Part shown: one piece after another, positions 14,710 through 62,665 of the stretch
Layout: each line of letters starts with the position of its first letter
Numbering within the stretch: the first letter of the stretch is position 1
Origin: an uncultured Candidatus Rokubacteria bacterium
GTDB taxonomy: Bacteria; Methylomirabilota; Methylomirabilia; Rokubacteriales; DASRDR01
Assembly (NCBI GenBank): GCA_963805625.1
Contig: CAWDVE010000010.1
Span: forward strand, 32,001 to 96,000
DNA: 64,000 nt
Reading direction: 5' to 3'
Translations under genes and position numbers: made by a program
The notes under the pieces: generated by a model
Database searches by the model: none
Told to the model about the DNA's origin: nothing
Seen by the model: the letters and a program-made list of their open reading frames with translations, nothing else

Positions 14710-15258
14710 GGATCCCCCGACTCATGACATCTTCGAGGCATGGCGGATCAAGGAATGTTTTCAGATTTTATGTTGTTGATCCGCTGCGGGAGCACTCCGT
14801 CGGAGACGGCGGGGTCATCATAATCTGATCAGGATTACCGATTCTCATCTGGATTTTCATGAAGGTCCGAACACTTCTTTCATACAGGTTTCCCAAAAAA
14901 TTATAGTATTTTACGAGAGTCACCCGCCTCAGGGCCTCTCCGAGGCACGGCGGGTCAGGAGGTTTATTTCGGATTTTTGGTTATTGAACCGCCGCGGGGG
15001 CGTCCCTTCGGGGGCGGCGGGGTCATCATAAGTTTGATTCACAGATACCGATCCCCGTTCATCTCTGAATATTACGATTTTCATGGTTCAGGTTCGAACA
15101 CTTCTTTCATACAGGTTTCCCATAAAAATTATCAGTATTTTACGAGAGTCACCCGCCTCAGGGCCTCTCCGAGGCACGGCAGGTCAGGAGGTTTATTTCG
15201 GATTTTTGGTTATTGAACCGCCCCTGGAGCGTCCCGTCAGGGGCACCAGTCGTTCATC
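14710..15258 (+). repeat. Tandem triplet of the B-spacer-A hairpin unit (period about 210-229 bp)
   Basis: B at about 14714 (degenerate), 14922 and 15151; A at 14781 (degenerate), 14989 and 15218 (degenerate). Flanks such as GAACACTTCTTTCATACAGGTTTCCCA are also duplicated. Confidence 0.9.
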
Positions 15259-15294
15259 TTAAAACAGAAACTCAAAAAAACAAAGATCTCGGCT

Positions 15295-16662
15295 TTATTT
15301 CTCCCGCAGTATCCTTGTAAGCGGTGAGCGACGGTCGAAGAATTCCGCGATGAACGGAGCAAACTCCTCCTGCCAGCATTCTGCACCCTCATGCAGTGTC
15401 CATCCCTTTTCCAAAGACTGCCGGATGTGTTTGCCCAGACTCACCGTCAGGAGAGCATCTGAAGAAAGAAGGCTCTTTGCGGTCTGGTATTCCCTGTTGA
15501 CCTCCATTTCGTACCGCCCATCTTCAATAAAAGGTCCTGACAGGTGCTCGGCAAGGTGCTTTTTGCGGAACTTGTCGGCATTTTCCCGGTTCCAGATCGG
15601 GGGGCCATGATGCTGTCGAATTGCCGGGAGATCCCCTACGAGCAACTCAACGAGGAACATGCACTTGTCTGTCTGCATATCATAGGAAGCGTGATGGACC
15701 AGAAATCCGTTCCGTTCCAGAAATTCCCGGAGCGCAATGGCACTTCGTTTCAGCTGAGGCACAACAATCTCCGGAATGTACTGGGGTGTCGCGAAGGTGA
15801 TGGCATAAACAAATGTCCTGCGCTGTGAGATAATGGCAGCGAGCTCCTTTTTCAGGATGCAACGTTCCATCGGATGAGCAAAAAATTCATAGACCGGGTT
15901 TTCATCATATCCCCGGGCAAGCTCCACAAATCCTGCCATGCGATCGAGGGATACTGCTGCTGCAACATTGCGTTTCGGATCGACCGGGTCGATCACCACC
16001 AGGGGCTCATCAAATTTCTTTGCTGCATGTTTTTCAATATCGATAACCAGACCGGGGCGCCAGTCTGCAGCTGCCCTGATGAGAGGGGTGAATCCTCCGT
16101 AATGGAGTATTAGCAGCTCGCACAGGTAGCCTGAGAAGCCTTCCGTCATCTGGTCTGACCCGTAGATCCCACCTGCCTTGGTAAATTGTTTGAGCAGGAG
16201 GACATCATCTATTAACCCGTTGATCCGGTCGGTGATATACCGGGTATGAAACGGCGTGCGATCCACTGCGCTCTGTATGCGGGTCGCGCTGTCCACGTGA
16301 TAGCAGGGAACAAGATCTACATCCACGTCGTCGATGGTTGCATTGATATACGGATGCTCGGCATATTTTTCATGGAAACGGTCAGTAAACGCTCCTGCAA
16401 TGCTGCGAGCGAGCGACAGGCCCTCCTCTTCAAGCTGTTCGCGGGAAAGGAGCGGATCGAAAAGCATGAAAATATCGAGATCGCGGTCGCCTTTCACCCA
16501 GGTGTGCCGGGCGATGGAACCGACTACCATCGCTTCTGCCCTGCCACTCTGGGCGATTGCTGCCAGCAGGCGCTTTGCAAGACCCCAGACATGTTCCTGT
16601 TCCTGTCGGGTCGGTCGGAGATCCAGAAGAACGGTCTCTTCCAGCGGCAGCCGGGTTACCAA
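15295..16662 (-). CDS. cca: Archaeal class I CCA-adding tRNA nucleotidyltransferase
   Basis: VGSIARHTWVKGDRDLDIF, YAEHPY, SAVDRTPFHT and GFSGYLCELL motifs. Confidence 0.95.
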   Translation of the reverse strand: MVTRLPLEETVLLDLRPTRQEQEHVWGLAKRLLAAIAQSGRAEAMVVGSIARHTWVKGDRDLDIFMLFDPLLSREQLEEEGLSLARSIAGAFTDRFHEKYAEHPYINATIDDVDVDLVPCYHVDSATRIQSAVDRTPFHTRYITDRINGLIDDVLLLKQFTKAGGIYGSDQMTEGFSGYLCELLILHYGGFTPLIRAAADWRPGLVIDIEKHAAKKFDEPLVVIDPVDPKRNVAAAVSLDRMAGFVELARGYDENPVYEFFAHPMERCILKKELAAIISQRRTFVYAITFATPQYIPEIVVPQLKRSAIALREFLERNGFLVHHASYDMQTDKCMFLVELLVGDLPAIRQHHGPPIWNRENADKFRKKHLAEHLSGPFIEDGRYEMEVNREYQTAKSLLSSDALLTVSLGKHIRQSLEKGWTLHEGAECWQEEFAPFIAEFFDRRSPLTRILREK

Positions 16663-17195
16663 TTCAGCACCTCGAGGTCTTCATAGACCGGCCCCTGAGG
16701 CAGCAGCGTACTTTTCTTAAGCACCATACCATGGACTGTGCAACTGCCGTATCCTGTCCTGCTCAGGTCTTTAAGCACGGAAAAGAGTGACGGGTCCGGG
16801 GATTTTACCCGTGCGATGGTTGCATGGGGAGTAAACCTGCGGGTCTCCCGTGAAAATCCAAGTGGAGCAAGTGCATCCTCAATCAGCGTGAATACTTTCT
16901 CCCCCTCCCCCGCGTCGTCAATGGCGCACCAGACCGTATGCGGGCGCCGGGGATTATTTACGGTTACCATTCCTGCTGTGACAGGAAAGGGACTGAAGGT
17001 GATTTTTTTCAGGGCTTCAATAACTTGTGGAAGGGTCTTCTCATCGACCTCACCGAGGAACTTTGCCGTTATATGAATATTCTTCGGCTCCACAAAGGTG
17101 AGACGTGCCCGGCACCTGCGGAGCGTCTGCTGGGCCGAGGCGAGCTGGTCTTTGATCTCATCTGAAAGCTCCAGTGCAATAAATACCCTGACCAT
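16656..17195 (-). CDS. thpR: RNA 2',3'-cyclic phosphodiesterase (2H family)
   Basis: Two HxT motifs (HITAKFLG, PHATIAR); the usual archaeal neighbour of cca. Confidence 0.92.
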   Translation of the reverse strand: MVRVFIALELSDEIKDQLASAQQTLRRCRARLTFVEPKNIHITAKFLGEVDEKTLPQVIEALKKITFSPFPVTAGMVTVNNPRRPHTVWCAIDDAGEGEKVFTLIEDALAPLGFSRETRRFTPHATIARVKSPDPSLFSVLKDLSRTGYGSCTVHGMVLKKSTLLPQGPVYEDLEVLNW

Positions 17196-17324
17196 TAGGG
17201 TACTATTATTTCATACCACTACTAATGGTAATCGATTGCCGGAATGCTTGGGCTCAGGAGCATAAACCAAGTTTTTTTTACGGGCAATTCCAAATTCATA
17301 GATGACAGACCAGAGGGTGTTTTT

Positions 17325-17594
17325 GTGCCGGAAAAATTGCAGTTGATTGTGTATACACTTGAGCATTGTCCGAATTGTGACATTCTGAAAGGATTTTTAA
17401 AAAAAGGAGGGTATAAATTCATTGAACAGGACCTCTCAACTGCGGAGTCCCTTACCGAGCTGCGAATGAATGGAATCTTCGTTAATGAAGCACCGGTCTT
17501 ACAAAAAAGTTCAGATTTTTATACCTCTGCAGACATTTTTCCCCGCGGCGAGCTGGATGCAGAGAACTTATCAAGGCTTATTTCAGGTGAATGA
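17325..17594 (+). CDS. nrdH: Glutaredoxin-like NrdH redoxin
   Basis: YTLEHCPNCDILK (CxxC) and APVL motifs; abuts nrdD; GTG start inferred from GAGGGTG RBS. Confidence 0.8.
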   Translation: MPEKLQLIVYTLEHCPNCDILKGFLKKGGYKFIEQDLSTAESLTELRMNGIFVNEAPVLQKSSDFYTSADIFPRGELDAENLSRLISGE

Positions 17595-19779
17595 ATGGCG
17601 CGGCGGGAGACAAAACAACTGACATTTGACGGAATTACCGTACCTGTCCTCCCCTTCGTCCGTACATCTGACGGGCATATCATCGAATGGAACCGCGATC
17701 GTATTGTCCGCCAGATTGTTCAGGAAACAAAGCTGGTCGAGACCTTCTATGGCTATGAAGGGGCAGACGAATTGACCGCCCAGGATATTGCCCTGGAGGT
17801 TGAAAACCGCATCAAGAACATGGGTCTGAAATCACTTTCCGGTCCACTCATCCGTGAGATTGTCAACATCACACTGCTTGAGAGGGGTATGATACAGTAC
17901 CGCAATGTTTCTACCCGTGTCGGTACTCCGGTTTATGATGCACACCAGATTGATGTCGGGAGGGGATTCGAAGCACACGACAACGCAAACCTCCAGGAAA
18001 ATGCCGAGACTTCCCATAAGAAGAAAGCAGACAAGATCTCAAAGGAACAATATCTGCTCCAGCTCCCACCCGACCTTGCCGATCATCACCTGTCCGGCGA
18101 GATGCACATCCATGATCTCGAGTATTTTGGTACGCGCCCGTTCTGCCAGGACTGGGACCTGCGCTATTTCTTCTATTATGGCCTGATGCCTGACGGCAAT
18201 GGTACAAAGGCTTCGGTGGCTGGTCCTGCGAAGCGTCCGGAGGTTGCAATTCTCCATGCGGTAAAAGCACTCGGATCCGCCCAGACTAATTTTGCCGGTG
18301 GGCAGGGTTATTACAATTTCCTCACCTTCCTGGCGCCTTATATGGAGGGGATGGGGTATAACGAGATCAAACAGAACATGCAGATGTTTGTCTATGAAAT
18401 GACACAGATGATGGTAGCCCGGGGAGGTCAGCTTGTCTTCTCATCCATCCAGCTCTCACCGGGTGTACCGACTCTCTGGCAGGACAAGCCATGCATTTTT
18501 AAAGGAAAGATCTGGGACGGCAAATCAGCTCCTCTTCGCACGTATGGGGAGTTCGAGCGTGAGGTGCGATTGCTCTTCAAAGCCCTCATGGAAGTAATGC
18601 TTGAAGGAGATTACTGGGGCAAACCCTTCAACTTCCCAAAGCCCGAGATCTCTATCGAACCGGATTTCATGAATGAACGCGAAGAGTTCAACGCGAAAAA
18701 CCCTGATCTTCCAACATTCCAGGAATTATACCTGATGACCTTCGAACTCGCTTCGAAGTTCGGAACACCCTATTACGATAACCAGCTTCCCGCGTACCGC
18801 GGAGCAGGTAAAGGGATTTCCTGTTACCAGTGCTGTGCGTATCAGTTTTCCACGGTGGCAGACAAGGATTCGGATTTTGATAAGAAGATGTATTTTGAGG
18901 ATGGCAGGCACTTCTCGATGGGATCCTGGCAGGTTGTTTCCGTAAACTGCCCCCGTGCGGCATATAATGCAGAAGGAGATGATACCCGTCTTTTTGCCGA
19001 ACTCAAGGCGCTCATGGATGTCGCGGTGGATATTTTCAAGATCAAACGCCGATGGATGGACCTTATCCGGGCCAACAGCCGGATGCCATTTGCCATGCAG
19101 CGCCCCAAGGACCCGAACACCGGTGAACGTGGCGCACTTGCTGTCGATCTTGAAGGACTGGTATATACGATTGGGGTCGTCGGTGTCAATGAGATGGTGC
19201 AGCACCACACCGGTAAGCAGACTCCACGAATCAAAAGAAGCATTCAGGCTTGCCATACGTGCGATGACAGAGATGGAGTTGTATGGTCGCGAACTCTCCG
19301 CAAAGAATAACATGACCATTGCCCTTGCCCGCACGCCGGCAGAGACGACCGGGCAAAGGTTTGCGGTTGCCGATCTGCTCGATCGCCGGTATCACGATTA
19401 TGCAGTAAACGTGATCAAAGGAGACATCGAAGAAGGCCTGGAAATGCTGGGCAAGAGCCGTGATCTCCCCATATACTATACGAATGGCACCCATGTGGCA
19501 CCGGGGGCAAATGTCCCGCTCACCAAACGTATGGAAATCGAGCATGTATTCTTCCCCATTGTTGACGGGGGGAACATCTTCCATATCTGGCTGGGTGAGG
19601 CACGTCCGGATCCACGTGGACTCATGGACATGGCGATGAAGCTCTGCCGCAATACCCAGATAGGATATTTTGCTTTTACCCGGGATATTACGGTCTCGCT
19701 CCGCCAGTTCCACGAGATGCGTTCGTCAAAGAAATCCATTACCCCTTATATCCCCTCAGATTTTCCTGTCAAGGTATAA
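17595..19779 (+). CDS. nrdD: Anaerobic (class III) ribonucleoside-triphosphate reductase with ATP cone; +1 frameshift at 19221; lacks the C-terminal Zn/glycyl-radical domain
   Basis: ATP cone; HIHDLEYF, PFC, FAGGQG, FNFPKP, QCC, TPAE and YYTNGTH motifs; removing the A in AGACT gives KQLHES. Confidence 0.9.
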
Positions 19780-19996: not shown

Positions 19997-20298
19997 ATGA
20001 TGAACGCCGCCGCCCCCGAAGGGACGCCCCCGCGGCGGATCCAGTTACAAAGTTGGTAAATTTCGACAACTCTAAAAACCTCTGACCCGCCGTGCCTCGG
20101 AGAGGCCCTGAGGCGGGTGATCCTCATAAATTTTTTATGAAATTCACCGTTCAGGAATCGTTTTTTTAAACAGAGGATGATGAACACCGTTGTGTCCGGG
20201 GGACGTTTCCGCTGCTGATCATCCAGAAAAATCGGTCAATTTCTGATATATACCAGAACCGCCATGCCTTCGGAAAGACCTGTGGCGGGGACCCTCAT
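19997..20298 (-). repeat. Two B-spacer-A hairpin units, one intact and one degenerate
   Basis: A(rc) 20007-20038 and B(rc) 20085-20118; degenerate A about 20178-20220 and B about 20259-20292. Confidence 0.88.
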
Positions 20299-21424: not shown

Positions 21425-21425
21425 C

Positions 21426-23645: not shown

Positions 23646-24074
23646 AGCTCTGTTGAAACGGGCATGAACGGGAAAATTGAACTAAACAGATGTTCGTAAT
23701 GGATTGTTTATTCTTCAAAATTATTTGCGATGAACCCCGCCGCCCCCGACGGGGCGCCCCCGCGGCGGATCAGTATCTGTAAGCATATTTGCAAAACACC
23801 GCACTGCCCCGCCGTGCCTCGAAGAGGCCCTGAGGCGGGGGACCCTCCTAAAATAGGATGGTTTAATGATTTTCATCGCAATTTGTTGAAATCTTAGGGT
23901 TTCTGAGGGGAACAGTGCCTGTCCCCCGACCGCCCCTGCGGTTTACGATTGTGTTGTATTACCTTCTCGGGAATTATCGCTCGACAGGGGATGTCACAGC
24001 GGCGAGTGTGGAGGCATTACGTGCCGTTGTCCTGAAGAGCGTTGAGAAAAATATTGTGAGGATTTAACAGGACC
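23646..24074 (+). mobile_element. MITE-like composite element, copy 2, with the internal hairpin cassette inverted
   Basis: Left end AGCTCTGTTGAAACGGGCATGAAC and degenerate right end ATTTAACAGGACC; A(rc) 23737-23768, B(rc) 23807-23840, module C about 23905-23972. Confidence 0.75.
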
Positions 24075-24368
24075 GAAATGGCTTAAAAAAGGGAAAGATA
24101 CTATGGGAATTATCGAAAAAATCCGGAAAACCGGGAAATCGTAGTCAGGGTATCCTGTGCGTGATTTTTTCATCATAGGTGAAAAAAAGGAATTCTGAAT
24201 AACAGTTATTTTTTAATATGCACGCAATTCTGATGATCGGCCGATAAAAATCGCCCTAAAATAAAATCAATTATAAATTTACGCCTCATTTGTCAAACCG
24301 GGTGAAATTTACAGGTATTTGAATTAATATGATATCAAAATTTATATAGAACCACAATACAATAGATA

Positions 24369-29282: not shown

Positions 29283-29852
29283 ATGAGGGAGCTGAAGAAT
29301 AGTATACGGCAGATCCTGCGTCAGCGCAAAGATGCAATGACTACGGAAGAGAGGCTGAATAAAAGCGCAGGGATCTGCCGCCATCTTCTGGCACTGATCA
29401 GGAATGGCGAAACTGTAATGGTATACACCTCAAAGGAAAAAGAGGTACATACAACACACCTTATCGCTGCCCTCCTTGAACGCGGAAATCCGATTATCGT
29501 GCCTATAATTGTGAAAGAAGATGTCAGTCTGCGACTCTCTTATCTGAAAGATCTCTCTTCTCTTGTCCCGAGCACGTTTGGTGTCCCGGAACCTATAGGA
29601 AGTGAGATACCGGCGACAGGTGGTGACGTGGATACGATCATCCTCCCCATGCATGGTTTTGACCGGACCGGGCGGAGAATCGGGTATGGAGCCGGGTATT
29701 ATGACCGGTTCCTGGCAAAACATCCGAATTTACGAAAAATCGGGATCGCTTTCGCCTGCCAGGAATATGAAAATCTGCCCGTTGATGAGAATGATATCCC
29801 CATGGATTATATCATAACCGAAGAAGGTATTGTGTATCCGGAGGGGGAGTGA
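29283..29852 (+). CDS. 5-formyltetrahydrofolate cyclo-ligase family protein
   Basis: K..IRQ..RQR start; FGVPEP, FDRTGRRIGYGAGYYDRFL and DIPMDYIITE motifs. Confidence 0.9.
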   Translation: MRELKNSIRQILRQRKDAMTTEERLNKSAGICRHLLALIRNGETVMVYTSKEKEVHTTHLIAALLERGNPIIVPIIVKEDVSLRLSYLKDLSSLVPSTFGVPEPIGSEIPATGGDVDTIILPMHGFDRTGRRIGYGAGYYDRFLAKHPNLRKIGIAFACQEYENLPVDENDIPMDYIITEEGIVYPEGE

Positions 29853-29856
29853 TACA

Positions 29857-30748
29857 ACGGAGATAAACGGTACAAAAATTCTGGATACCTATGCAGAGGC
29901 ATTCCCGGTCTGGCTTTCCCGGGTTATTATTACTGCAGCAACACGAGAATGGGCGTATAAGGCGGCAGTTGAAGCGACAGGATTTGCGACATCAAAAATC
30001 GGGTGTCCCTGTGAAGCCGGGATCGAAGGGTATCTCTCAAAAAAAGAGACTCCTGACGGCAGGGCAGGTGTTTCCATCCTGATCTGTTCAGATAAGAAGA
30101 CCATGAAATCAAATGTCGCATCCCGGATTTCCCAGTGTATCCTCCCGGCGCCTACAGCATCGGCCTATGACGGATTTCCTGAAGCCGGATCACGGTTCTA
30201 TATCCGTATGCACTATTTCGGGGACACCTATGAGGAGCGCTGCAGCATCAATGGCAGAAAATGCTGGAAGATCCCCATCATGGAGGGAAACTATATCGGT
30301 GAGGAACGATTTGGGACCGTAAAGGGAATAGCAGGGGGCAATTTTCTTGTCATGGGAAAGAACCAGAAGTCGGCACTTTCCGGTATTGAAGCAGCAGCTG
30401 ATGCTGTCGCGGGATTAAAGGGTGTCATAACCAGTTTTGCAGGAGGAATTGTTGCAAGTGGTTCGAAGACTGGGCAGTAAAAATTACCGTTTTCCCATGC
30501 CGGCGAGCACAAATCATGTATGGTGCCCGACCCTGAAAGGAAAAATCGGCGATTCGAATGTACCTGAAGGGGTAGGATCGGTATATGAGATGGTAATGAA
30601 CGGAATCAGTGAAAATCATATCAGGGCCGCAATGAAGGCGGGCATACTCGCTGCCACGGAAACAGGGAGGGTCATGTTTATCGGGGCATCAAATTTTGAG
30701 GGAAAACTTGGCCAGTACAGGTTTTACCTGCATGACCTGTTCAGGTAA
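29857..30748 (+). CDS. ftr: Formylmethanofuran:H4MPT formyltransferase paralog; apparent ACG start and +1 frameshift at 30469
   Basis: DTYAEAF, GFATSKIGCPCEAG, TPDGRAG, GIAGGNF, GGIVASGSK(L)GS and ASTNHVWCPTL motifs. Confidence 0.85.
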
Positions 30749-30953: not shown

Positions 30954-31410
30954 GGGGGCGGAGGCATCACGTGCCATAGCCCGAAAAAAGAGCGTTAAGA
31001 AAAATATTTTGAAAATTTCCCATCAAAATAGAATTAAACAGATGTGAGTAATGGATTGTTTATTTCTCATAATTATTTGTGATGAACCCCGCCGCGGGGG
31101 CGTCCCTCCGGGGGCGACGGCGATTATCCTTATGCATAGAAGAGTTGCAAATCTCATAAGATGATAGCAGTTTAAAGTATATTTCGGCATGAACTCCTTA
31201 GTTTTCAACAAATTGGAAATACCTATCTCAAAGGAACCCTGCGCCCCCGAAGGGCGCCCCCGCGGCGGATAGGTCTCGTAAGTATATTTGCAACACCGCA
31301 CTCCCCGCCGTGCCTCGGAGAGGCCCTGAGGCGGGGCCTCAGAAAATTATAGGGTTTAATGATTTTCATGTTCAGTGTGAACTCACGTTCATGCCCGTTT
31401 CAACAGAGGC
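30954..31410. mobile_element. Rearranged MITE-like composite element, copy 4
   Basis: End module 30954-31020, cassette flank, A(+) 31089-31120, A(rc) 31238-31268, B(rc) 31303-31336, terminus GTTCATGCCCGTTTCAACAGAGGC ending at 31410. Confidence 0.7.
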
Positions 31411-31442: not shown

Positions 31443-34400
31443 TCAGCCCGCTTTCTTATAACATATTTTTGCCTCTTCATGTTTACCTATGGTATCGAGT
31501 ACTCCCCCGATATCCTCCCAGACTTCTTTGCGCCCGGGATCGATTTCCAGCGCATGTTTAAAAGACGTGAGAGCTTCCTGATACTTTTCCTGTTCCTGTA
31601 ATGCACGTCCCCGGTAGATCCATGCATCTACAAAATCAGGCTGGATCGTTAACATCGTGTTGAACGATTCCACAGCCTCCATATACCGTCCGAGAGCAAT
31701 AAGTGCACTTCCTTTGGTGAAATAGGCGATGGAAAAGGAGGGGTCGGCAGTTATTGCATGTTCATATGATTCGATTGCAGCCTCGCTCTGGAATTGAGCG
31801 GCAAGTGCCATCCCATGACGTGTCCAGGCAACGGCATTCTCAGGATCAAGCTCAAGACATCGTTCATATGCGGAAAGAGCTTCCGGATATTTCCCAAGAT
31901 CGTAGAGCACATTCCCCTTCCCCATCCATGCCTCGGCAGAATTTTCATCCTGTTCCAGAGCTTTATCAAAGGTCTCCAGTGCATCTCTCGACATTCCAAG
32001 TTCGGCAAGGGAAGTCGCTTTATGGGACAGCGTCACTGCGCTATGACCGATTTCCAGAGAACAATCATATGATTGTATTGCTTCCCTGTGCTGGTCAAGT
32101 GCAGCATAAGCCATACCCTCAAAGTAATACAGGTCAGCAGTCCTGTAGTTGTTCTCAATGGCATGCTCGAATGCCCGTATCGCATCATCAAAATTGCCCA
32201 TCTCAAAATAAGCTCTCCCTTTCCAGAAAAAAGCCTGGTTACAGGCAGGGTTCATCTCGAGAGCCCGTTCAAATGCAGAGATTGCCGCGTCAGGATTTCC
32301 GAGAATGAAAAGAGCCCTTCCCTTCTCATAGACAGCATTTGCATACCCGGGACTGAAAGCGAGCGCAAGATCAAATGATGCAATTGCCTCTTCATTCTTA
32401 CCGCTGTGCATGAGTGCCCGCCCGCGTTCATAGAGAGCTTCCTCATTTTCCGGATTAATGCCAAGCGCAGCATCAAAGGCAACAATCGATGCATCATAGT
32501 CACCAGTACGGGCAAGAGCAATTCCCTTGTGGTGGTATGCCTCGGTATACCGGTCATTCAATTCAAGTGCATGATTAAATGCGGTTATCGCGTCGTCATA
32601 CCGTTCATGCCTGAGGTACGTGACACCCTGATAATAGAAGGCTTCCGGATAATCCTTCCGGAGGGAAAGTGCCCTGTCAAGTGCTTCAAGCGCTTCATCG
32701 TATCTGCCCAGGTGAATCAATGCAATACCACGGTACAGGTATGGGGCAGCTGATGGTGCCTCTTTGGAAATTGCATGATCATAACAGTCGAGAGCCATAT
32801 CGTATCTGCCGAGGTTTGCTTCAGCAATACCTTTACTGAGCCATGCATCCGTAAATGTGCTTTTTTCACCGATTGCCCGGTCGAATGCACCTATTGCCTC
32901 ATGATACATCAAAAGACTCATGAGAGCCTGTCCCTTCTGATAGAACGCCTGGACGCACTTCGGGCTGCGGGCCAGGGCAGCTTCGAAGCTTTTAATTGCC
33001 TCATGATACCTGCCGAGACGGGATAATGAAATCCCGGAATAATAGTATGCCCGGGGGTCTTTTGTATCGATGGCCAGTGCCTTGTTAAAGCAGGTTACGG
33101 CATCCAGATCCTTCCCGAGTGCTGAGAGGGCGAATCCTTTCCCGGTCCAGGCAAATGCAGCGGTGGGACGGAGACGTAATGCCTGATCAAATGAGGTTAT
33201 CGCTTCTTCGAACCGGGTGAGCCGGGTCAGGGCAATTCCCTTGTGGTAGAGTGCTTCGATATGTGCCGGCTCGGCTGCAAGTGCATTTTCGAAGGATACT
33301 ACTGCCTCGCTGTCCCTTCCCAGTTCAAAGAGTGCCCGCCCCTTGTAATACAATGCTGAAACGAAATCCGGGCGTATTTCCAGTGCGTTGCTGAATGAAT
33401 CATCTGCATCTTCGTAACGGGTCAATGCGAAAAGTGCAGTCCCTTTCAGGTACCATGCGTCAGCACTGGTCGGGTCAGTCGCGAGGGATTTCTCATATGC
33501 TTCAATCGCTTCATGATATCTGCCCAGTTCTGCCATTGCCATACCACGGTGCAGCAATGCTTCAACAGATTCGGGTTGTACCTGCAATACCCTGTCAAAT
33601 GCATCGATTGCATCTTTCTGCCGTCCGGTCGCAACAAGGGACAACCCTTTATTATAAAAGGCCTGTGCATTACCTGCATCAAGATCGATGTTTTTGTTGA
33701 AGGCGATAATGGCATCTTCATGGCGGCCCAGATTTGCAAGGGCACACCCCTTATGGAGATAGACATCAGCATAATTTCTCTCAATGCTGAGTGCCTTGTC
33801 AAAGGCTTTTACCGCATCACGGTACATGCCAAGAGAAGCGTGTGACTTTCCTTTGTTGTACCATGCCTCAGCAAAGGAAATATCGGTCTCGAGTGCCCGA
33901 TCAAACGATTTGACAGCTTCTTCAAACCTGCCGATATGAGCAAGTGCAGCACCCTTATAGAAAAGTGTATACGTGTGTTTCTGGTTGAAATTGAGTGCCT
34001 GGTCATAGACGGTAATTGCATCACCGGTCCGGCCGAGAATGTCCAGTGAACGCGCCTTGCTGTAATACGCCTCAAAATAATCCGGTTTCAGGGCGATGGC
34101 ATTTTCAAATGCTGAAATTGCCAGGTCGTGGCTTTCGAGTTTTGCATAAACAACACCCTGCTCAAACCAGATCTGTGCATCGTCACGGGTTATGGTAAGT
34201 AGTCTTCCGAATACTTCTGCAGATTCAGCATATCGTCCCAGTTCGGCAAACGATGATGCGTAAAAGAAGAGGGCATCCGTATTACCTGCTTCGACAGCGA
34301 GTGTTTTTCCCAGTGCACTGAGTGCTTCTTCAAATTTACCGAGGTGGAACAACGCAATACCCTTCTCACATAAAGCACTCGTAGTATCCGGTGAGAGCTT

Positions 34401-43400: not shown

Positions 43401-46400
43401 GCGATAGCATCCTCATACCGCTTTAATTCGAGATACGAAAGTCCCAGGTAATAGTAATTTGAGGCGTCGGACGCATCCAGGGACAGGGCCGCCTCAAAGG
43501 ATTTGACGGCATCGCTATAGCGTTCACGCTGGACAAGGGCGACTCCTTTGAAATGATGCGTTGATGGATTTGAAGGATCAAGAAGAAGTGCTTTGTCGAA
43601 TGCTTTTATCGCATCGCTGTATCGTTCTTTACCGGTAAACGCGACACCGAGGAAATAGAACCCCAATGCATTTTCAGGCTCGATTTCCAGTGACTTCTCA
43701 AATGTCCTGATGGCATCATCGTATCTCTCGCGCTGGGTAAGAGCAATCCCTTTCTGGTACAGGATTTGTGGATTATTGGGAGATATTTCCAGTGCCAGGT
43801 CGTAAGATACGATAGCTTCCAGGGGTTTCCCAAGGTGAATAAGGGCATTTCCCTTTTCAAAAAATGCACGGGCGCAACGGCGGTTGATCTCAATAGTTTT
43901 ATCAAAAGCATGAACGGCTTCTTCAAATCTTTCAAGAGCCGACAGCCCGATACCAAGGTAACACCATGACCAGACATCGCGTGGCTGTTCTTCAACCGAG
44001 CGGGTAAGAATCAGCACCGCTTCTTCAAAATGGTGAATTTTGATAAGTTCGATACTTTTTCGTACTGTTGCTTCAGTAAGTCCTGGATCCAGCACGAGGG
44101 CCTGATTAAAAGCCTCAATTGCCTCGTCATGTAAACCAAGATTTGCCAGGGCAATACCCTTGTTCAGCCATAATCCGGGACGCGAGGGATCATGTTCGAG
44201 TGCTTCCCTGAAAGTATCCAGAGCTTCCTGATAGTGTAAAAGACGTAAATGGGCAATCCCTTTCCCGGATAATGCCTCGTGATTATAGGGGGAAATTTCA
44301 AGGACGCGATTAAAAGCGTCGATTGCATCGGAGTATTGCCTGAGCTTCAGGAGCGTTTCTCCCCGGTAAAACAGCGCAGGAATATAGAGCGGATTGATTC
44401 CAATTGCCCTGTCGAAAACATTCAGGGCCTGAGAATAATTTTTCTGGTGAACCAGCGCAAGTCCCATGGCATAATGAACCTCAATAAAATCCGGTTGAAG
44501 TTCAAGTGCGATGTCAAAGGACCTGATTGCATCATCATACCGTTTCAGCTCGGAAAGAGAAATTCCCTTATGGTAGCTGATCATCGGATCATCAGGGTTT
44601 AGTTCAAGTGCCCTGTCAAAGGCTGCAATTGCATCCTTGTGCCTGCCCAGCTGGGACAAGGCAATCCCTTTCCTGCGATAAGCGGGGGTGCAACCATTAT
44701 TGATCTCTATGGCTTTATCGAATGACTGGAGCGCTTTTTCGGGCTGCCCTCGTGCCGCAAGGGCAACACCCTGATAACACCAGAGCAGGGCATCCCCGGC
44801 GCATTCCCCGGGAACGCTGCTGAATACTCCGAGAGCCTCCTCATGTTTTCCAAGTTTGACGAGTGCAATTCCTTTTCTGACCAGCGCATCTGTTCTTTTT
44901 GGATCCAGCAGAATCGCCTGATTAAATGCCTCGACTGCTGCTTCATACTGTTTCATCTGCTGGTGCACAATCCCGGAATAATAATAGGAAGGTGCATGGG
45001 CAGGATCGAGTGCAACAGCCCGATCGAATTCTGTAAGGGCCTCCTCAAAGTGATCCAGCTCGATAAGGGCAATACCCTTAAAATGGTGGACAAGGGAATA
45101 TGAGGGATCGATGGCAAGGGAATGATCGAATGCGGTTACCGCTTCAAAATACCGCTCGGTTCCGGCATATGCCAGTCCAAGAAAATAATATCCCGAAGCA
45201 TTTTCCGGTTCATGTGCAAGGGCATGTTCGAATGCATCGATTGCATCGTCAAAACGTTCCTGACGAAAGAGAGCGACACCTTTCAGATAGATAATTTTCG
45301 GATTATCAGGTTCGATCTCCAGTGCACGGTCATAGAGATCTGCCGCTTCTGACTGGTCACCCAGATAGGAGAAGGCGTTTGCTTTCTCATAGAGTGCACG
45401 TGTGCACCGCGGGTTGATCTCCAGAGTTTTGTCAAACGAACGAATGGCTTCTTCAAATCGTTCGACAGATGAAAGGGCGATACCTTTATAGTACCATGCC
45501 TGGTCATTGCCCGGCTGTTCTTCAAGAGCACGGTTAAGAATTGAGATTGCCTCATCATACCGGCAGAGAGTAATCAGGACAATTCCTTTACGGACTGCTG
45601 CCTCCGCATGCCGGGGATTTAATATAAGTACCTTCTCGAATGACGCGATGGCTTCATCTGCCATTCCCAGTCTGCTGAGGGCAATTCCTTTCTGGAGCCA
45701 GCCTTCGGTAAGCGCCGGGTTTTGCTCGATTGCCTCGTTAAATGCCACCAGTGCTTCCTGATATCGTGAAAGATGGAAAAAAGCCAGACCTTTATTAAAC
45801 CATGCACCGGTATTCTGCGGTACCTGTCCGAGTACGCTGTCGAAATCCAGTATCGATTCAGCATAATGTCCGGTCTGCAGATAAGCGGTACCGCGCTGAT
45901 AGAGAACGAGGGTATTTGCCGGATCAATTTCAAGGGCCTGATCGTAGGCATATACGGCATCTTCATATCTCCCCAGCTGAATGAGTGAAAGTCCCAGGTT
46001 GTAATAGGCATTGATGTAATTCGGGTTGATGGCAATGGCGTGTTCAAATGCATCAATTGCCATTTCGGACTTCCCGAGCTTTGCCAGGGCAAGACCTTTA
46101 TCATAGAATGCCTGGGCATACGAAGGTTTGATCCCGATACTTTTATTGTATGATTCAATTGCATCAGGATATTTACCGAGTTTGGCGAGCAGGAGTCCTT
46201 TCTGGTGAAATGCCTGTGCATTTTCCGGGTTCTGTTTGATTGTCCTGTCAAATTCCTGAATGGCTTCATCGACATTTCCCAGTTTTGCGAGTGCAAAACC
46301 CTTATGGAAATATGCATCCCCATACATCGGATTGATCTTCAGGGCCCTGTCGTACGCAGAAACTGCTTCCGTATACCTGCCAAGGCTGGCGTACGCAATT

Positions 46401-47664
46401 CCGCCCTGGAATGCTGCCTGTGAACATCCGGGATCCAGACGAAGCGCCTGTTCGAACGATTCAATCGCTTCTTTATGCCTGCCCAGCTTCGTCAGGGCAA
46501 TGCCCCGGAAATAAAATGAGGCAGGATGCTCCCCTTTTTTCAAGCAGAGCCTGGTCAAATGATGCCAGCGCATCCTCGTACCGGCTCAGCCTGATGCAGG
46601 CAACTCCTTTCAGGTACAACGCATCGGAATTTTCCGGCTCAAATGAGAGAGTACTGTCAAAATCCAGCATCGCATCCCGGTACTTATGCAGATGGGAAAA
46701 CGCAATGCCACGATTGTAATATGCGGGAGTGTTTCCCGGGCTGAGCTCTATGACTTTATTAAACGCAGAGACTGCATCGGTATATTTTTGCATCGCGTTG
46801 AATGCAAGTCCTTTATGAAGCCATGCATCAGCCACAAGCGGGTTCATCTCAAGGGACCGGTCGAGTGCTGCTACAGCTTCGTCATATCTTCCGATTCTGA
46901 AAAGAGAAATTCCTTTTATTGCCCAGATATCAGCATGCCCAGGTTCCTGCCTGAGAAATGTATCGGCCGATTCGACAGCTTCTTCAAAACGTTCCTGCTT
47001 CGCGTAAATAAAACTGCGGTAATACCAGACCCATATATCAGTGGAATCTATTTCAAATGCTTTATTGAATGCAATCAGCGCGTCATCATATTTCCCGATG
47101 TCGTAGAGTGAGATTCCCTTATTATAGAATGCCTTTGCGTAACCGGGTACGATTTCGATGGCCTTATCGTATGCCAGAATTGCTTCAGAGTGCATGTTGA
47201 GATCGGCAAGTGCAATTCCCTTGTTATAATAGACTTTCGCATGCCGGGGATCGACGGTCAGTGCGTGATCATATGCACCGATTGCTTCTTTGTAGCGCCC
47301 CAGTCTCATAAAAAGCAATGCCTTTAAGGATCCATGCTTCGGCGTTGTCCCATTTGATGGTCAGTAAACGATCACATGCTTCCAGGACATCCTCGTTTCT
47401 TCCCATCTGGGCGAGGGTCGCTGCTTTATTATACCAGGCATTGGTATCAATGGGATCGATAGCAACTGCATGATCATACGCATCGATGGCATCCTCGTAT
47501 CTGCCGAGATCATACAGAGCAATGCCTTTAAAATAATAGGCTTTTGAAAAATCGGGAAAGAGGGCAAGCGCACGATCAAACATGACAATGGCTTCCTGAT
47601 ACCTGCCAAGGTCATAGAGTTCGATGCCCTGTCGCAACAATGCCTCAGCATCACTCTTATTCAT
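31443..47664 (-). CDS. Giant TPR-repeat protein (about 5,400 aa if joined), broken by roughly 9-10 single-base frameshifts
   Basis: Consecutive overlapping ORFs (47269-47664, 46473-47318, 41426-46573, 38617-41496, 38187-38768, 38039-38314, 36167-37723, 34684-36249, 31443-34760) are all uninterrupted 34-aa TPRs that stay in register across the junctions. Confidence 0.85.
35372..38623 (-). repeat. About 4 near-identical tandem copies of an 816-bp unit (272 aa, 8 TPRs)
   Basis: GCATCGTGTGCAAGAACCTGG recurs at about 35921, 36738, 37554 and 38371. Confidence 0.92.
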
Positions 47665-48044: not shown

Positions 48045-48118
48045 AGCCTGTGGCGAGATTTGAACTCGCGACTTCCTCCTTACCAAGGAGGCACACTGCC
48101 GGGCTGTGTCACACAGGC
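48045..48118 (-). tRNA. tRNA-Thr(GGT), CCA not encoded
   Basis: Acceptor stem GCCTGTG/CACAGGC, anticodon arm CCTCC-TTGGTAA-GGAGG, T arm GCGAG-TTCAAAT-CTCGC. Confidence 0.95.
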
Positions 48119-49879: not shown

Positions 49880-50245
49880 GAGCAACGCCGCCGCCCCCGA
49901 AGGGACGCCCCCGCGGCGGATCAATAACAAAAAATTCTCACGAAACCAACTGACCGCCGATGCTCCTGGAGAGGCCATGAAGCGGATTGTCACAAATGGT
50001 AACGATTTTCTGGAAAAGACATGATATATCTCGCATCCGGATTTCGAGAATTGTGTATTCAGATATAGATCAGAAATTGGCAGCTCTCCATACCATAAAA
50101 GGAAACATACTGCCCCGCCGATTTGACCTGCGGCGGATCGGCAACAAAAAAATTCTCCCTGAACCTGCTGACCCGCCGTGCCTCGGAGAGGCCCTGAGGC
50201 GGGTGACATTCATAAATGTCGATGATTTTCTGGAAAAGGACATGA
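49880..50245 (-). repeat. Tandem pair (about 220 bp period) of the B-spacer-A unit
   Basis: Intact A(rc) about 49887-49919 with degenerate B, then degenerate A with intact B(rc) 50171-50204; shared flank GATTTTCTGGAAAAG..CATGAT. Confidence 0.88.
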
Positions 50246-53756: not shown

Positions 53757-54284
53757 GTCTCTGTTGAAACGAGCATGAACTGGAGTTCGCACCCATACTG
53801 TGAAAATCATTAAACCATGTAATTTCAGGAGGATCCCCCGCCTCAGGGCCTCTCCGAGGCACGGCGGGGCAGTGCGGTGTTTGCAAATCATGTTTACAGA
53901 CACTGATCCGCCGCGGGGGCGCCCCGTCGGGGGCGGCGGGGTTCATCGCAAATAATTAAGGGATATAGACATTCCACAACGCACATCAGTTTAATTCAAT
54001 TTAATATGGAAATGTCCCGGTATTTCCATTCTGTGTGCCTGTGGCCGCAGGCATCGTGTCTATTTTCATGGGAAACCATAAGCAGTCCAACAAATTGCGA
54101 ATCACCTGGTGTTGGACGGGAAGTGCCTGTCCCCCCGAACCGCTCCTGTGCTTTGTGATGGTGTTGTATTACCTTCTCTGGAATTATTGCTCCAGAGGGG
54201 GATACAACAGCGGGGGTGGAGGCATTACGCAGCGTGGCCAAAAAAGAGTATTGAGAAAAATATTATGAGGATTTCGACAGAGCC
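53757..54284 (+). mobile_element. MITE-like composite element, copy 3 (528 bp)
   Basis: Termini GTCTCTGTTGAAAC and ATTTCGACAGAGCC; B 53836-53869, A 53908-53939, module C about 54117-54182. Confidence 0.78.
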
Positions 54285-54302
54285 TAAAAATGATTTGTGT
54301 AT

Positions 54303-57300
54303 TTATACCGGCTTATAGCCGAGAGCCTGCACAAGGGCAATCATCTCTCCAACCTGCTCTTCCTGCTCTTTTGTCAGCCTGCGGTTTTTCTGGATTAAAC
54401 GCCCCATCCTGATAATCTGAAGACGCTGGTCATGGGAAAGTGATTCGGAATGACGGGCCCACTTGATCAGGCCCAGCCATTGCCTTCTGTTAAACGAGAA
54501 GGCAGGAGAGGGGAACATATCCCCATAGGTTTGGATTTCACGGACATCCTTATCGGGTTCTTCCACGCCTTCAGACTCATCAGAGACATCCCCTTCAGAT
54601 TCAAGATCTTCTGTTGCTGCTTCTGGATAGACGAGCCCGGGTGATACCTCCTCTTCGTGTATGACTGGCGAGGGTGAAGGCTCCTGGGCAGGCATTGACG
54701 CACGGTTCATCTTCTTCGAAAAGGTCATCTATGCCGGAAAAATTCTGATGGCGGGTGACCGTTCCCGGTGGTTTGTCTTCTGCTGAAGACACAGGAGAAA
54801 CAGGTTCATTTTCCGGAGCGGGAGGGGTTTGTTTTTCGGGGTGATACCAGCTCCAGGGAATGGGATGCAGACTCAATTTTCACGGGAAGAACCGGCTCTT
54901 TTGCAACAATTTCCTGCACCTCCTTTTTTTCTGACCCGGCCAGGTCTGCCTGCGAGAGGGATTGCTCCAGCCGCTGTCGTTCCAGGACGGCAGCCTCAAG
55001 ACGTTCGTCACTGGTCATGTGGTCCTCCCATTCCTCGGCAAGGGCAGTTCTTGCCTGTTCAAGCTCAAGGGTGAGGGCCCGGACCTTCTGCTCAGCCTTC
55101 ACCTTTTCCTCATTCAGGACGCTTACTTCTTCTTCCAGGGATTTTTGCAGGTTACAGACGGTTTCGAGATCTTTTTTAAGATTCTGGAACTTTTTTGCCC
55201 GGTCCTGTTCCTGGTTATCCCGCTCTTCGGTCAGTGCCTGAAGTTCCTCTTCCAGTTTTTTCTTCTCCTGGACTGCGATATTGGACTTTTCTTCAGCGAT
55301 CCGGCGGCTTTTTTGTTCGTCTTCAAGTCTTGCTTTGAGTGAATTCAGCTCATCAGAAGAGCTGCGGAGATCCTCTTCATAGCGCTGGCGGTTCTGCTCA
55401 ACTGCTTTCAGGTTTTCGTTTGAGGTCCGGTGAAGGCGCTGCTCAGTTTCAAACTCTCCCTTTAACCGTTCAAGTTCGCCAGTAAGCAGCCGGATCTGTT
55501 GTTCGTAGTGTTCCCTGCCGCTTGTAGCCAAAGCCATCTCCTTTGCATAAGCCATATTCTGCGTTTTTGCAGAAGCCAGATCGCGTTCGAGCATTCGCCG
55601 GCTTGCAAGCGTTTCGTCGAGATCGTGTTTTAATCGTATGAATGTCGTTTTGTACGACTCCATATCCGTTTTAACCTGCTCTTCAGTTTTTTCCTTTTCA
55701 AAGACCGCGGCGTTGAGGGTTTCCCTGAGTGACTGCAACTGGCTTTCTTTCTTTTCAAGCTCTTCTTTTACCTGACCCAGTTCGGTCGTCAGGGAACTCA
55801 CCTGTTGTCCGGTTTCCTCTTTTCCCCGGGACAGGAGGGCCAGTTCGTCTGCATATGTCCTGGCCTGAGCCTTCGCGGCGTCAAGATCCGCTTCAAGTGC
55901 CGAACGGGTCGCAGCAGCCTGCGTAAGAGCCTGGTTCAGATCTGCAACCGATGTATCGTACGAAACCTGGGTTGCTCTTACCTGTTCTTCGGTTTTTATC
56001 TTTTCCGCAACAGATTCCGCAAGATCCCGTTCCAGTGATTTTATCTGGTCCTCTTTGGTTTCGAGCGAGGAACTGACGGTCCTGTATTCCGCCTGAAGGG
56101 CGTCCAGTCTGCCCGGTAAGATTATTGATGGTGGACTGAAGGGATGATTCCCGTTGTTCATTTTCCTGCCTGAGTGATTCCAGCTGTTCCTGTCGGGAAA
56201 TCCGCCCGCTTCTCTCGGCCTCCAGTTCTTCTTTCAGCCGTGCCAGATCCGCAACCTTCAGCTGGATGGTCTGGTCAAGACCGGTGATTTTCTCGTTAAG
56301 TTCCTGTTCGGATTGTGCTCTGGCCTGCATCAATGCCCGGATTTCCTGCTCTGCAGCATTCAGCCGGGATTTGTCGGCCTCGAACGCAGATTTCAGGTTT
56401 TCGTGTTCAGGTATGAGTGCATTCAGGTTCTTTTCTGTCAGATCTTTTTGCGCACTCATCTCCGCGAGGGTGGTTTCCAGCGAGACCCGCCGGGTCTTTT
56501 CTTCTTCAAACGCAGATTTCAGGGTTTCATGTTCAGGTATGAGCGCATTCAGGTTCCTTTCTGCCAGATCTTTTTGTGTACTCATCTCCGCGAGGGTGGT
56601 TTCCAGCGAGACCCGCCGGGTCTTTTCCTCTTCAAACGCAGATTTCAGGGTTTCATGTTCAGGTATGAGTGCATTCAGGTTCCTTTCTGCCAGATCTTTT
56701 TGTGTGCTCATCTCCGCGAGGGTGGTCTCCAGCGAGATACAATGGGTTTTTTCTTCTTCGAACTCCTTCTGGACAGAGTCTAATCTCACTTTTGCGGTGT
56801 TGATCTTGGTTAACAACCCGGAGACCTGTTGGCGGAGAGCGTCAGTTTCCGAGAGGTGAAATGATTCGATCTCCTCTTTTTCCCGGAGCAGGGTACGGAT
56901 GTTTTCATCTTTTTTGGCAACGAGAGCCGTATTCTCTTCAAGTTTTCCGGTAAGAGTCCTGATTTCTGCTGTTTTTTGAGCGAGGGCCCGTTCCTTATCT
57001 GCACCTTCGCTGCTCAATGCGACAATTTTCTGATCCTTCTGCTTGACAGTAGCATTCAGGAGATCGATAACACAGGTATGTTCGGTGACACTTTCTTCGA
57101 GAGTTGCAGCAGATTCGGTCAGCCTTTGAATTTCCAGATTCAGTTCGGACAGCTCAGATGATTTGTTGACTGCAATCTCGAAAGAGGAGAGGAGAAACTC
57201 GAGGATTTTGCGCCGGCTGGCGGAGACGACATAGATCCGGTCGTCATGGTTGATTTTGAACTGCGTTTTGATAAGTTCGGGAGTCTGCCGCTCCACAGGT

Positions 57301-57692: not shown

Positions 57693-57937
57693 CGCAATCT
57701 CCCTTACTCGATTAAAAGCTCAAGAAATTATATACTTGTTTATATGTTCTCCTATACTCAATTATAGCATTTCTGGTCAAACGGGACATTCCAGTGGCTG
57801 ATTAATGATAAAACTGCGTTCATGAATACTTATAAAAAACGAATCTTGCGAAAAACAATTTTCCTGCGCTCATCCCTTCATACCGGGAATGGTATCAGGT
57901 TTGTCAGGCTTTTTTTGAAAAAAGGTATTCTGTTTCA

Positions 57938-58798: not shown

Positions 58799-58929
58799 AT
58801 GCGTCCATCCTGAGAATTGAGATACAGGAATATTTTGATTCTCCGGTTTAAGGAATATTGCACACCTGCAAAACCAGCCGGTTCCGTCCCGTCCAAACAG
58901 ATATGACGTTCCAGTGCCGATGAAAGTAC

Positions 58930-59670: not shown

Positions 59671-59769
59671 TCCCATCAATCTGGATGATTATTGGGATGG
59701 TTCGTGGTGATCAACGAAAAGAAACAAGGGATTTGTCTGGTATCAAGGCTTTTTCACGACAATATAGTT

Positions 59770-60089
59770 ATGATGAGGGTTCCCCGCCTCAGGGCCTCTC
59801 CGAGGCACGGCGGGGCAGAAGGGTGATTAGCAGAATTTTTCAGGTTTGTGAAAAACCATGAATCTAAATAAATCCCTATTGGGCTCATGAGATTGCTTCT
59901 CCAGTGAATCACCGGTAAAAACTGAAAAATTGTTCTTTTGTAAGAATGTGTATTTCTGCCCATTAGTATTTATGAGACTCAGTCGCCTCGGGGCTTTCCC
60001 GAGGCATGGCGATTCAGGGAAGTTTATAAGGAGTAACTCTCTCCCTGATCCGCCGCGGGGGCGTCCCTTCGGGGGCGGCGGCGTTCATC
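59770..60089 (+). repeat. Lone B hairpin followed by a full B-spacer-A unit
   Basis: B 59782-59815; variant B 59981-60014; A 60050-60081 followed by CGTTCATC. Confidence 0.9.
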
Positions 60090-60184
60090 CTTTTGGTATC
60101 GACATCTGACCGTTCCCCGAGATATCTGAATATTGTGATTTTTATTGTGGTTATTGCCGGCAGGGATCAAATTTGAGCCGGCTC

Positions 60185-61855: not shown

Positions 61856-62212
61856 TTACACCACAATATCCCGGATTACCGCGGTTTTCCGTTCGCCATT
61901 CTGGATCAGGTACATTTTGAATTTATAGTTTCCGGGTGCGAGCGGTGCCGGGATCATGACCGCATTGTCACCTGTATTTAGTCTCGCCGCCCCCATAATT
62001 ACCGAATGTTCCTGCTGGGTAAGACCCGTCACCCGGTATATCGTGACCTGTACAAATGCATCTGAAGGTTCATCCGGATTATTAATACTCGCAGTTATGT
62101 TGTTACCAGAGTAGCCGACATCGCCGATACTCGATGATACGCATCCGCACAGGAATAGAAAAAGAACCAGAAGAGCTATTTCGCAGGCAGGTGACCTGAC
62201 ATGTGCGAACAT
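61856..62212 (-). CDS. Putative small lipoprotein with Ig-like domain
   Basis: Hydrophobic signal ending LCGC; beta-rich body ending PGNYKFKMY. Confidence 0.7.
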   Translation of the reverse strand: MFAHVRSPACEIALLVLFLFLCGCVSSSIGDVGYSGNNITASINNPDEPSDAFVQVTIYRVTGLTQQEHSVIMGAARLNTGDNAVMIPAPLAPGNYKFKMYLIQNGERKTAVIRDIVV

Positions 62213-62544
62213 TATTCAAATGTAAATTCTCCGGGATTTAAACCTTGGTATGCCTGGCTCATTTGAGTTTTCTCTTTCATCGATTGGCTGGAATTTTCTT
62301 CCTGACACCTGAGTGCAGAATATTCTCCAGATCTTTATACAGGCTGATAACTGATTCACTCGTTGACGGGTTATCTCGAAAATATCGGGCAATCTCGAAC
62401 AACGGGCTTTTTCCTCTCCCATTGCCGAATTATCCTCCGCACACCCTGATTCGATAATTTGGCTCATATCGTTATTTAGATGTGTTTTCACATGATTTCG
62501 GAACAGGACATTCTGGTCTCGCTTCCCGAAAATCTTAAGATAAA

Positions 62545-62665
62545 AGAGAGTCACCCGTTTCAAGGCCTCTCCGAGGCACGGCGGGTCAGAGAAGTGTCGA
62601 GATTTTTATTTTTTTAACTACCAGTCCGCCGCGGGGGCGTCCCTTCGGGGGCGGCGGCGTTCATC
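62545..62665 (+). repeat. Single B-spacer-A unit
   Basis: B 62553-62586, A 62626-62657, then CGTTCATC. Confidence 0.92.

Follow-up and report, generated by a model that had tools for sequence, protein, structure and literature searches.

A hairpin-cored MITE family in Methanoregula, probably mobilised in trans by IS5-family elements

The window, a stretch of 64,000 nucleotides from contig CAWDVE010000010.1 of an assembly catalogued as Candidatus Rokubacteria, consists of Methanoregula-like DNA and lies on a 143-kb stretch of about 50% GC joined to a bacterial contig of 70% GC. Its intergenic gaps, among them those between frhB-like and cca, nrdD and an hsp20-like gene, purH and grpE, and ftr and a TPR gene, hold copies of a unit made of two hairpins, B and A, separated by a spacer (Table 1). 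All 15 copies listed in a preliminary description of this DNA are real: nhmmer started from a single copy matched every position, and its 30 matches (E ≤ 1) in the 7.27-Mb assembly, 15 of them in the window, all lie at 4.5–135 kb of the same contig, the repeat family being confined to the 143-kb archaeal stretch. Each window copy is intergenic, and the four loci earlier placed between convergent genes are indeed convergent, as is the 31-kb locus. Summed short-read depth (assemblies from three studies) is far higher on the hairpins than on their flanks, which rules out an assembly artefact as the source of the repeat. An Rfam covariance-model search of the unit returned no match.

Table 1 Units and MITEs in the window (window coordinates; the state of hairpins A and B in each copy is given by edit distance to the hairpin consensus)
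Position	Strand	Feature	Details
797..1245	-	Complete MITE, 449 bp	TIRs at 797 and 1245; left-end region, variant core, module S
1083..1139	-	Hairpin A, only A near-intact	Inside the 797..1245 MITE
14707..14816	+	Decayed B-spacer-A unit (B and A both decayed)	First of three tandem TIR-less MITE relics, frhB-like/cca gap
14913..15024	+	Intact unit	B 14922-14954, spacer 14955-14989, A 14990-15020
15142..15258	+	Third frhB-like/cca unit	B intact, A decayed
19999..20127	-	Intact TIR-less unit	Between nrdD and hsp20-like gene
20179..20295	-	Decayed unit (B and A both decayed)	State by edit distance
23646..24078	-	Complete MITE	purH/grpE gap; TIR at 23646; extent by self-BLAST
23729..23849	-	Near-intact B-spacer-A unit	Inside the purH/grpE MITE
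30954..31410	-	Rearranged MITE remnants	ftr/TPR-gene gap; left-end region, TIR ending at 31410; part of S, lone A (31063-31128, +), near-intact unit (31234-31336, -)
49881..49991	-	TIR-less unit, A intact, B decayed	G004 has a copy too
50127..50213	-	TIR-less unit, B intact, A decayed	G004 has a copy too
53757..54284	+	Complete MITE, 528 bp	TIR, left-end region, core (intact B-spacer-A at 53828-53947), short insert, module S, TIR
59774..59846	+	TIR-less lone hairpin B	G004 has a copy too
59972..60089	+	TIR-less unit, A intact, B decayed	3' end of ade; G004 has a copy too
62544..62665	+	TIR-less unit, B and A near-intact	State by edit distance

The unit is not free-standing. It forms the core of a 450–530-bp element with 13-bp TIRs, a larger structure that the preliminary description had missed, as it had the bacterial assembly surrounding the archaeal window. 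Three TIR-bounded copies of about 430–530 bp lie in the window; in the first, another hairpin replaces B beside hairpin A, and in the purH/grpE copy, whose right end is placed within a few bases, the core is flipped relative to the left end. None of the window's own copies has a perfect 8-bp duplication, the flanks being 5/8 alike at 797..1245 (with a one-base offset in a homopolymer), 5/8 at 53757..54284 and, by eye, 6/8 in the remaining copy. Among TIR pairs in the loci examined, flanks are at least 7/8 alike in 29 of 52, against 12 of 2,000 random pairings, a count slightly inflated because the closing end was picked for the best flank match. The corresponding figure for pairs that hold hairpin A is 10 of 19, and only 12 of the 35 unit-bearing elements with TIRs on both sides reach a 7/8 flank match in a survey of four genomes (147 loci in 1.48 Mb). 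Short open reading frames overlap some copies, and the one scanned has no NCBIfam match at E ≤ 1e-8; the MITE is without transposase coding capacity. The preliminary description had named a match to a described IS end as grounds against its own reading, and in spirit this applies: ends of IS type are indeed present, but they flank the unit rather than form it.

A candidate partner occurs in relatives, where IS5-family elements of 1.0 kb (NF033579) have the MITE's ends and 8-bp target duplications, including one of 1,004 bp (L264) in which the duplication is exact. Related transposases at L255 (intact, 1174-2088), L257 and L251 score 215, 160 and 195 bits against an NF033579 cut-off of 140, the partner transposase also matches PF01609, and relatives of it occur in 47 of 151 family genomes. 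Among the best 30 partner loci, 24 have both ends and 11 an exact 8-bp duplication. The MITE and the IS share only their terminal 13–19 bp; PMC3852290 likewise describes archaeal MITEs whose likeness to the partner IS is limited to the ends. A point against the partnership is that the MITE core is absent from all 30 autonomous loci checked. The window encodes no mobilising enzyme, as had been stated before, and tblastn found no partner transposase in the whole assembly, of which only 143 kb is archaeal. The nearest named relatives of the partner transposase are an IS5 of a Methanomethylovorans plasmid (55%) and haloarchaeal IS5 elements such as ISHvo2 (32%). The ISH1 subgroup of IS5 (about 1 kb, 8-bp duplication, archaeal) is a candidate placement for the partner. 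Other families were rejected as partners: ISL3 is absent from four archaeal genomes, its matches in the present assembly sitting in the bacterial part; IS6 (10 of 121 genomes), IS1 (6 of 121, weak) and IS1595 (44 of 121) lack the MITE's ends around their own transposase in the loci examined, the ends of IS1595 being of another kind; and IS256, in one of five genomes, is without the MITE's ends.

The family is widespread in relatives, and the earlier reading of a high-copy, non-autonomous element holds. The TIR pattern occurs in 98 and hairpin A in 93 of 101 genus genomes, with copy numbers from 0 to over 100. A TIR lies within 420 bp of 91 of the 147 surveyed loci (background 57/469), and 33 of the 56 loci without one retain remnants of the MITE interior (background 7/279), so that 124 loci show a TIR or interior remnants and 23 neither. 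Comparison of orthologous sites reveals several stages of insertion and decay. The purH/grpE MITE is absent from the two closest relatives, G305 and G004, where its flanks join directly; contigs of four DNA runs contained no clean empty joint at this site. The tandem array of three in the frhB-like/cca gap is also present in G305 and G004, and a decayed version of the MITE left-end region separates its units. At the 20-kb nrdD/hsp20 site the spacer differs from that of the G004 and G305 orthologue. G004 and G305 also have an S-type MITE inserted in the unit's spacer, and the gap of the 62,544 unit holds a different, TIR-bearing copy in G004. At 31.4 and 54.3 kb, inspection by eye shows the same right junction with opposite orientation behind it. 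Overall, modules flip and swap between copies, and hairpins outlast TIRs. Viral carriage was considered and rejected: the 19 matches to the left-end pattern amount to one chance match within a phage tail gene, and hairpin A had no match in viral contigs.

The preliminary description had likened the family to REP/BIME repeats spread by HUH (TnpA-REP/RAYT) enzymes. The unit does share with such systems two GC-rich palindromes of 20–40 bp in intergenic position, a variable linker, tandem arrays and a convergent bias. Nevertheless, mobilisation by an HUH enzyme is highly improbable: Y1_Tnp (PF01797) occurs in 1 of 151 family genomes (locus L297) and in none of five hairpin-A carriers, a motif scan of 80 loci found no HUH-like protein near the element, neither of the four-base end tags that mark the two REP superfamilies (PMC3733652) is conserved by eye in alignment A1, and the unit lies within IS5-type TIRs with 8-bp target duplications, which indicate DDE chemistry. 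The family is not an archaeal REP/RAYT system. Equally hard to credit is a multicopy structured non-coding RNA family, the other reading offered at the outset, for which support is weak. Some copies fold better than shuffles (z −0.8 to −3.7) and 8 of 21 pairs carry changes on both sides, above 500 shuffles, but a slid control likewise yields eight such pairs, a competing cloverleaf scores equally well, the RNAalifold covariation term is just −0.45 kcal/mol and belongs to a third structure, both strands fold, and Rfam offers no counterpart. Folding of the spacer into a long hairpin is weak (uncorrected p 0.026 in one of three registers; inner duplex p 0.33), and C/D-box or tRNA-like readings were discarded, the box-like words not being conserved by eye in A1.

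Two further proposals concern what the hairpins do or where they came from. It is possible, if on balance unlikely, that domestication has turned TIR-less copies into bidirectional terminators, or into protectors of 3' ends, in convergent gaps, an addition compatible with a MITE origin in which each transcript would use the first hairpin it meets and the T-rich spacer would help termination. The suspected enrichment between convergent genes is borne out: 66 of 181 convergent gaps hold a locus, compared with 59 of 828 tandem (p 6e-22) and 19 of 180 divergent ones (p 6e-9). At frhB/cca, the 99-bp unit differs from its counterparts in G268 and G288 at only 6 and 9 positions, whereas divergence from these two genomes reaches 38% and 34% at fourfold sites of cca and 15/60 and 23/60 positions in the downstream flank. 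In three doublets of the 143-kb segment it is the outer B and the outer A that survive. Against this, tolerance alone predicts a convergent bias, tandem gaps show no orientation bias (10 versus 12), copy number varies widely as noted above, and TIR-less and TIR-bearing loci occupy the same context across the 147 loci (p 0.73), a TIR-less preference for convergent gaps having been hinted at by the 143-kb segment. Of 23 relatives, 6 have a short frhB/cca gap with nothing in it and 4 have other modules there, in G293 and G323 the unit has decayed (31 and 32 of 99 positions differ), the G268 and G288 changes are by eye not compensatory, and complementary decay with retention of outer hairpins follows no rule across arrays. 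An intact pair is kept in 42 of 46 arrays versus 56 of 101 singletons, which independent decay can explain. The three RNA-labelled runs gave contigs with small shares, and two of them are probably DNA.

An improbable alternative has the hairpins as older, independent Methanoregula cassettes, serving as a protein-binding site or recombination substrate, that were picked up by IS5 MITEs and spread also without TIRs. In distant species hairpin A mostly stands without a TIR close by (among 82 sites in many species, only 16 have a forward and only 16 a reverse TIR), hairpin A also pairs with other partner hairpins, conservation is 0.93–0.96 in bulges and 0.89–0.96 in stems as against 0.56 in the spacer, and an S-type hairpin occurs by eye between IS1595-type ends in L305 and G004. 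The high proportion of surveyed loci with a TIR or MITE-interior remnants argues against such independence, as do the old frhB/cca copy of G268, in which a decayed left-end region and TIR are still visible by eye, and the lack, among sites compared, of any TIR-less insertion with a clean empty site. A broader proposition strikes us as rather doubtful: that A, B and their sister hairpins are functional DNA or RNA sites, flipped and swapped in place, which MITEs from more than one IS family have in common and which the whole genus has adopted as bidirectional signals for 3' ends in convergent gaps.

The ends, duplications, partner elements and filled and empty sites of the MITE are observed. Taken together, sequence comparisons make it likely that the unit is the core of a new Methanoregula MITE family mobilised in trans by 1.0-kb IS5-family (DDE) elements. 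Under this model, an IS5-family transposase would move the MITEs through the common 13-bp ends, and insertions would mostly survive in convergent gaps, presumably because no promoter is disturbed there. Old copies would then shed TIRs and AT-rich flanks and multiply locally as tandem arrays. Gene conversion between copies would use the GC-rich hairpins as homology arms, which may be why the hairpins stay alike; such conversion would also account for the exchange of spacers and the flipping of modules at one and the same site.

In its TIRs, target duplication, length of about 500 bp or less, lack of a transposase, intergenic position and ability to fold, the family resembles the prokaryotic MITEs ERIC, Correia/NEMIS and RUP (PMC3184786 and PMC10969869), as it also resembles MITEs in being similar to its partner IS at the ends alone (PMC3852290). 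Its interior differs in being assembled from several GC-rich hairpin cassettes, which are found in varied combinations and orientations, outlast the TIRs and are nearly identical genus-wide. IS5 elements of the NF033579 (transpos_IS5_2) type have the same 13-bp ends, 8-bp AT-rich duplication and host family, whereas the MITE bears no trace of their transposase gene. Like the REP/BIME/REPIN repeats with RAYT (PMC3733652 and PMC3184786), the unit combines paired GC-rich imperfect palindromes and a variable linker with tandem clusters and a convergent-gap bias, and it may function like a BIME; unlike them, it has no RAYT and no end tag and sits between DDE-type TIRs. Its small repeats are bunched and nested in one another like the pneumococcal BOX/RUP/SPRITE clusters (PMC10969869), but the host is archaeal and a single pair of IS5 ends is common to the modules. 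A literature search found no description of this Methanoregula family, which the list of 18,091 archaeal MITEs in PMC11602168 may contain.

A bacterial contig carrying 143 kb of archaeal DNA means that taxonomic or gene-content claims drawn from this assembly would mislead. In Methanoregula, a widespread methanogen of wetlands and sediments, the family accounts for much of the repetitive DNA between genes, and its orthologous sites (empty, freshly filled, relic and re-invaded) make it possible to trace how an archaeal repeat arises and decays. If the cassettes are co-opted functional sites, they would parallel BIMEs in an archaeon, with a DDE MITE rather than an HUH enzyme at their origin; and if the hairpins shape transcript ends, the family would directly exemplify a MITE turned into an archaeal REP-like signal.

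The 15 copies of the B–spacer–A unit listed for the window in the preliminary description were all recovered, but this two-hairpin unit is not the free-standing element proposed there: it is part of a larger element bounded by terminal inverted repeats (TIRs), a non-coding MITE of 450–530 bp. Flank extension revealed a left-end region opening with a 13-bp TIR, followed by a core of ~230 bp that has its own 10-bp inverted ends and contains B, the spacer and A, then by module S, ~190 bp long and itself containing more hairpins, and finally by the closing TIR; in relatives, S also occurs alone between two TIRs, over 218–225 bp. Exact 8-bp duplications accompany many of the relatives' copies, and those of the window's own three complete MITEs are imperfect. 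Flanks were at least 7/8 alike for 29 of 52 TIR pairs over the examined loci, counted with the best-matching closing end, versus 12 of 2000 random pairings, and for 12 of 35 unit-bearing TIR pairs in a 1.48-Mb survey. The MITE in the purH/grpE gap of the window is missing from its two closest relatives, G305 and G004, where the flanks join directly.

MITE parts and other features located in the window
Feature	Position	Strand	Remark
Complete MITE	797-1245		
Complete MITE	23646-about 24075		
Complete MITE	53757-54284		
Lone TIR end	31410		
Region of a ~1.1-kb ORF in genomes G268 and G293	566-1529		Window has the 797-1245 MITE there, without such a gene
nrdD	17595-19779		Two overlapping frames, consistent with indel errors
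ftr	29830-30748		Two overlapping frames, consistent with indel errors
Very large TPR-repeat gene region	31443-47664	-	Split into many ORFs, colinear with G004 at 95%; breaks may be sequencing indels
Four tandem copies within it, ~816 bp each	35.3-38.6 kb		
tRNA gene	48045-48118	-	Sole Rfam match in the window
Coding tandem repeat, three ~126-bp copies	56363-56763		In a coiled-coil-like gene

The DNA itself is archaeal in character. The assembly, G000, comprises 28 contigs at 66–73% GC, and its single SSU rRNA scores 1559 bits with the bacterial model versus 1031 with the archaeal one. The first 143.4 kb of contig C10, which include the window, have ~50% GC, rising to >70% within 100 bases at position 143,400. 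The window's genes are archaeal or methanogen-type (archaeal CCA enzyme, ftr, frhB-like), and it is colinear with the Methanoregula genome G004 at 91–95% nucleotide identity. Position 143,400, outside the window, is thus a sharp join of 143 kb of Methanoregula-like DNA to a 70% GC bacterial contig, likely an assembly chimera or mis-joined contig. Our comparisons were therefore centred on Methanoregula genomes and not on relatives of G000.

Copies are far from confined to the window or its assembly. Although all 30 nhmmer matches in G000 fall inside the archaeal stretch, hairpin A with at most two mismatches is carried by 93 of the 101 genomes of the genus, copy numbers ranging from 0 to at least 124 per genome (strand counts of exactly 50 may be capped). 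Across the phylum, 8 of 301 genomes have it, and a DNA query located it in 27 of 151 genomes of the order. The exact 31-base hairpin-A pattern occurs in at least 121 stretches of the genome collection; for 79 of the 80 matches listed, the record title names Methanoregula, Methanoregulaceae, Methanomicrobiales or Methanolinea, and the remaining record is Nitrospirota-titled, with Methanoregula-like DNA near a contig end. L042, close to the start of a Nitrospirota-titled contig of 2.35 Mb, is MITE-bearing Methanoregula-like DNA (~51% GC, 69–81% identical to G004 genes) and probably marks a second mis-join. An Rfam search with the B–spacer–A unit gave no match.

The 1.48-Mb survey drew on G000, G004, G299 and G293, with contigs chosen partly for known copies, so that copy density is biased upward. 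It yielded 209 unit matches in 153 clusters, 147 above a 20-bit filter; none of these 147 loci lies inside a gene called by our own ORF caller, and 91 lie no more than 420 bp from a TIR, against 57 of 469 in the background. Since 33 of the 56 loci without a TIR retain MITE-interior remnants, compared with 7 of 279 in the background, most TIR-less copies are relics of MITEs. Among more distant species the TIR share is lower, with each end at 16 of 82 hairpin-A sites, and hairpin A is coupled to other hairpins.

Mobilization by HUH TnpA(REP)/RAYT enzymes, as suggested initially, is not supported: an HUH Y1 transposase was found in 1 of 151 genomes, and the unit lies between IS5-type ends. ISL3, IS6, IS1, IS1595 and IS256 were each tried as partner and each failed. 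A PF01609 search retrieved L264, a 1004-bp element that has the MITE's ends and is flanked by an exact 8-bp duplication, and L255, an intact 305-aa gene in G003; three partner-type proteins score above the IS5 cut-off of NF033579. Among named proteins, archaeal IS5 transposases come closest, and the partner may belong to the ISH1 subgroup. Its relatives are present in 47 of the 151 genomes of the family. Both ends were found at 24 of the 30 best partner loci, 22 of them 991–1013 bp apart, with exact duplications at 11 of the 30. Partner and MITE have only the terminal 13–19 bp in common, and the MITE core is in none of these 30 loci. IS1595-family transposases (L186–L215) occur in 44 of 121 genomes of Methanoregula's family, in elements of ~850–915 bp flanked by AT-rich duplications of 8 bp.

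Other GC-rich hairpin cassettes occur in different combinations between the MITE's IS5 ends (L125, L129, L132, L135 and L138 in G002, and further loci), so that the modules number at least eight. Hairpin modules also appear common to MITEs of two IS families, as S-type hairpins lie between IS1595-type ends at L305, at G004:C58 ~12.9–13.2 kb (L338) and at ~30.87–31.0 kb of the window (by eye, uncounted). Among orthologous sites, the frhB-like gene adjoins cca at 23 of 30 cca loci, and these gaps contain the unit, oriented as in the window (8) or the other way round (4), or other hairpin modules (4), or are short and empty (6) or unrecognised (1). By eye, the spacer at the 20-kb site is a different one in G004 and G305 and carries an inserted S-only MITE; in G004, the element at 31.4 kb is reversed with the same right junction, as is module S at 54.3 kb with the same junction. 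Such differences point to conversion, in-place inversion or target reuse.

Across 59 aligned copies, identity is ~0.9 in both stems and bulges but 0.56 in the spacer. The modest compensatory change fits the two-hairpin fold no better than a cloverleaf with four GC arms paired crosswise; RNAalifold gave a third fold. The enrichment between convergent genes noted earlier was borne out, with loci at 66 of 181 convergent junctions, compared with 59 of 828 where the genes run in tandem and 19 of 180 where they diverge. One orthologous unit has 6/99 and 9/99 differences in two species, against 38% and 34% at fourfold sites, and is thus about five times more conserved, but has decayed in the next two. 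Neither an orientation bias in tandem gaps nor a difference in gene context between old and young copies was found. Domestication of the unit, in a terminator or 3′-end role, is possible on these comparisons.

According to PMC13343696, no genome of the phylum is richer in IS than one of Methanoregula (12.82%). Our literature search found no description of the present MITE family, which may nevertheless be listed in the supplementary MITE catalogue of PMC11602168. The observations of the preliminary description stand, and their interpretation is redirected to a new, abundant, modular, putatively IS5-dependent family of MITEs in Methanoregula. Elements of this class are already known and the family is new; its hairpin cassettes are highly conserved and also highly mobile between copies.
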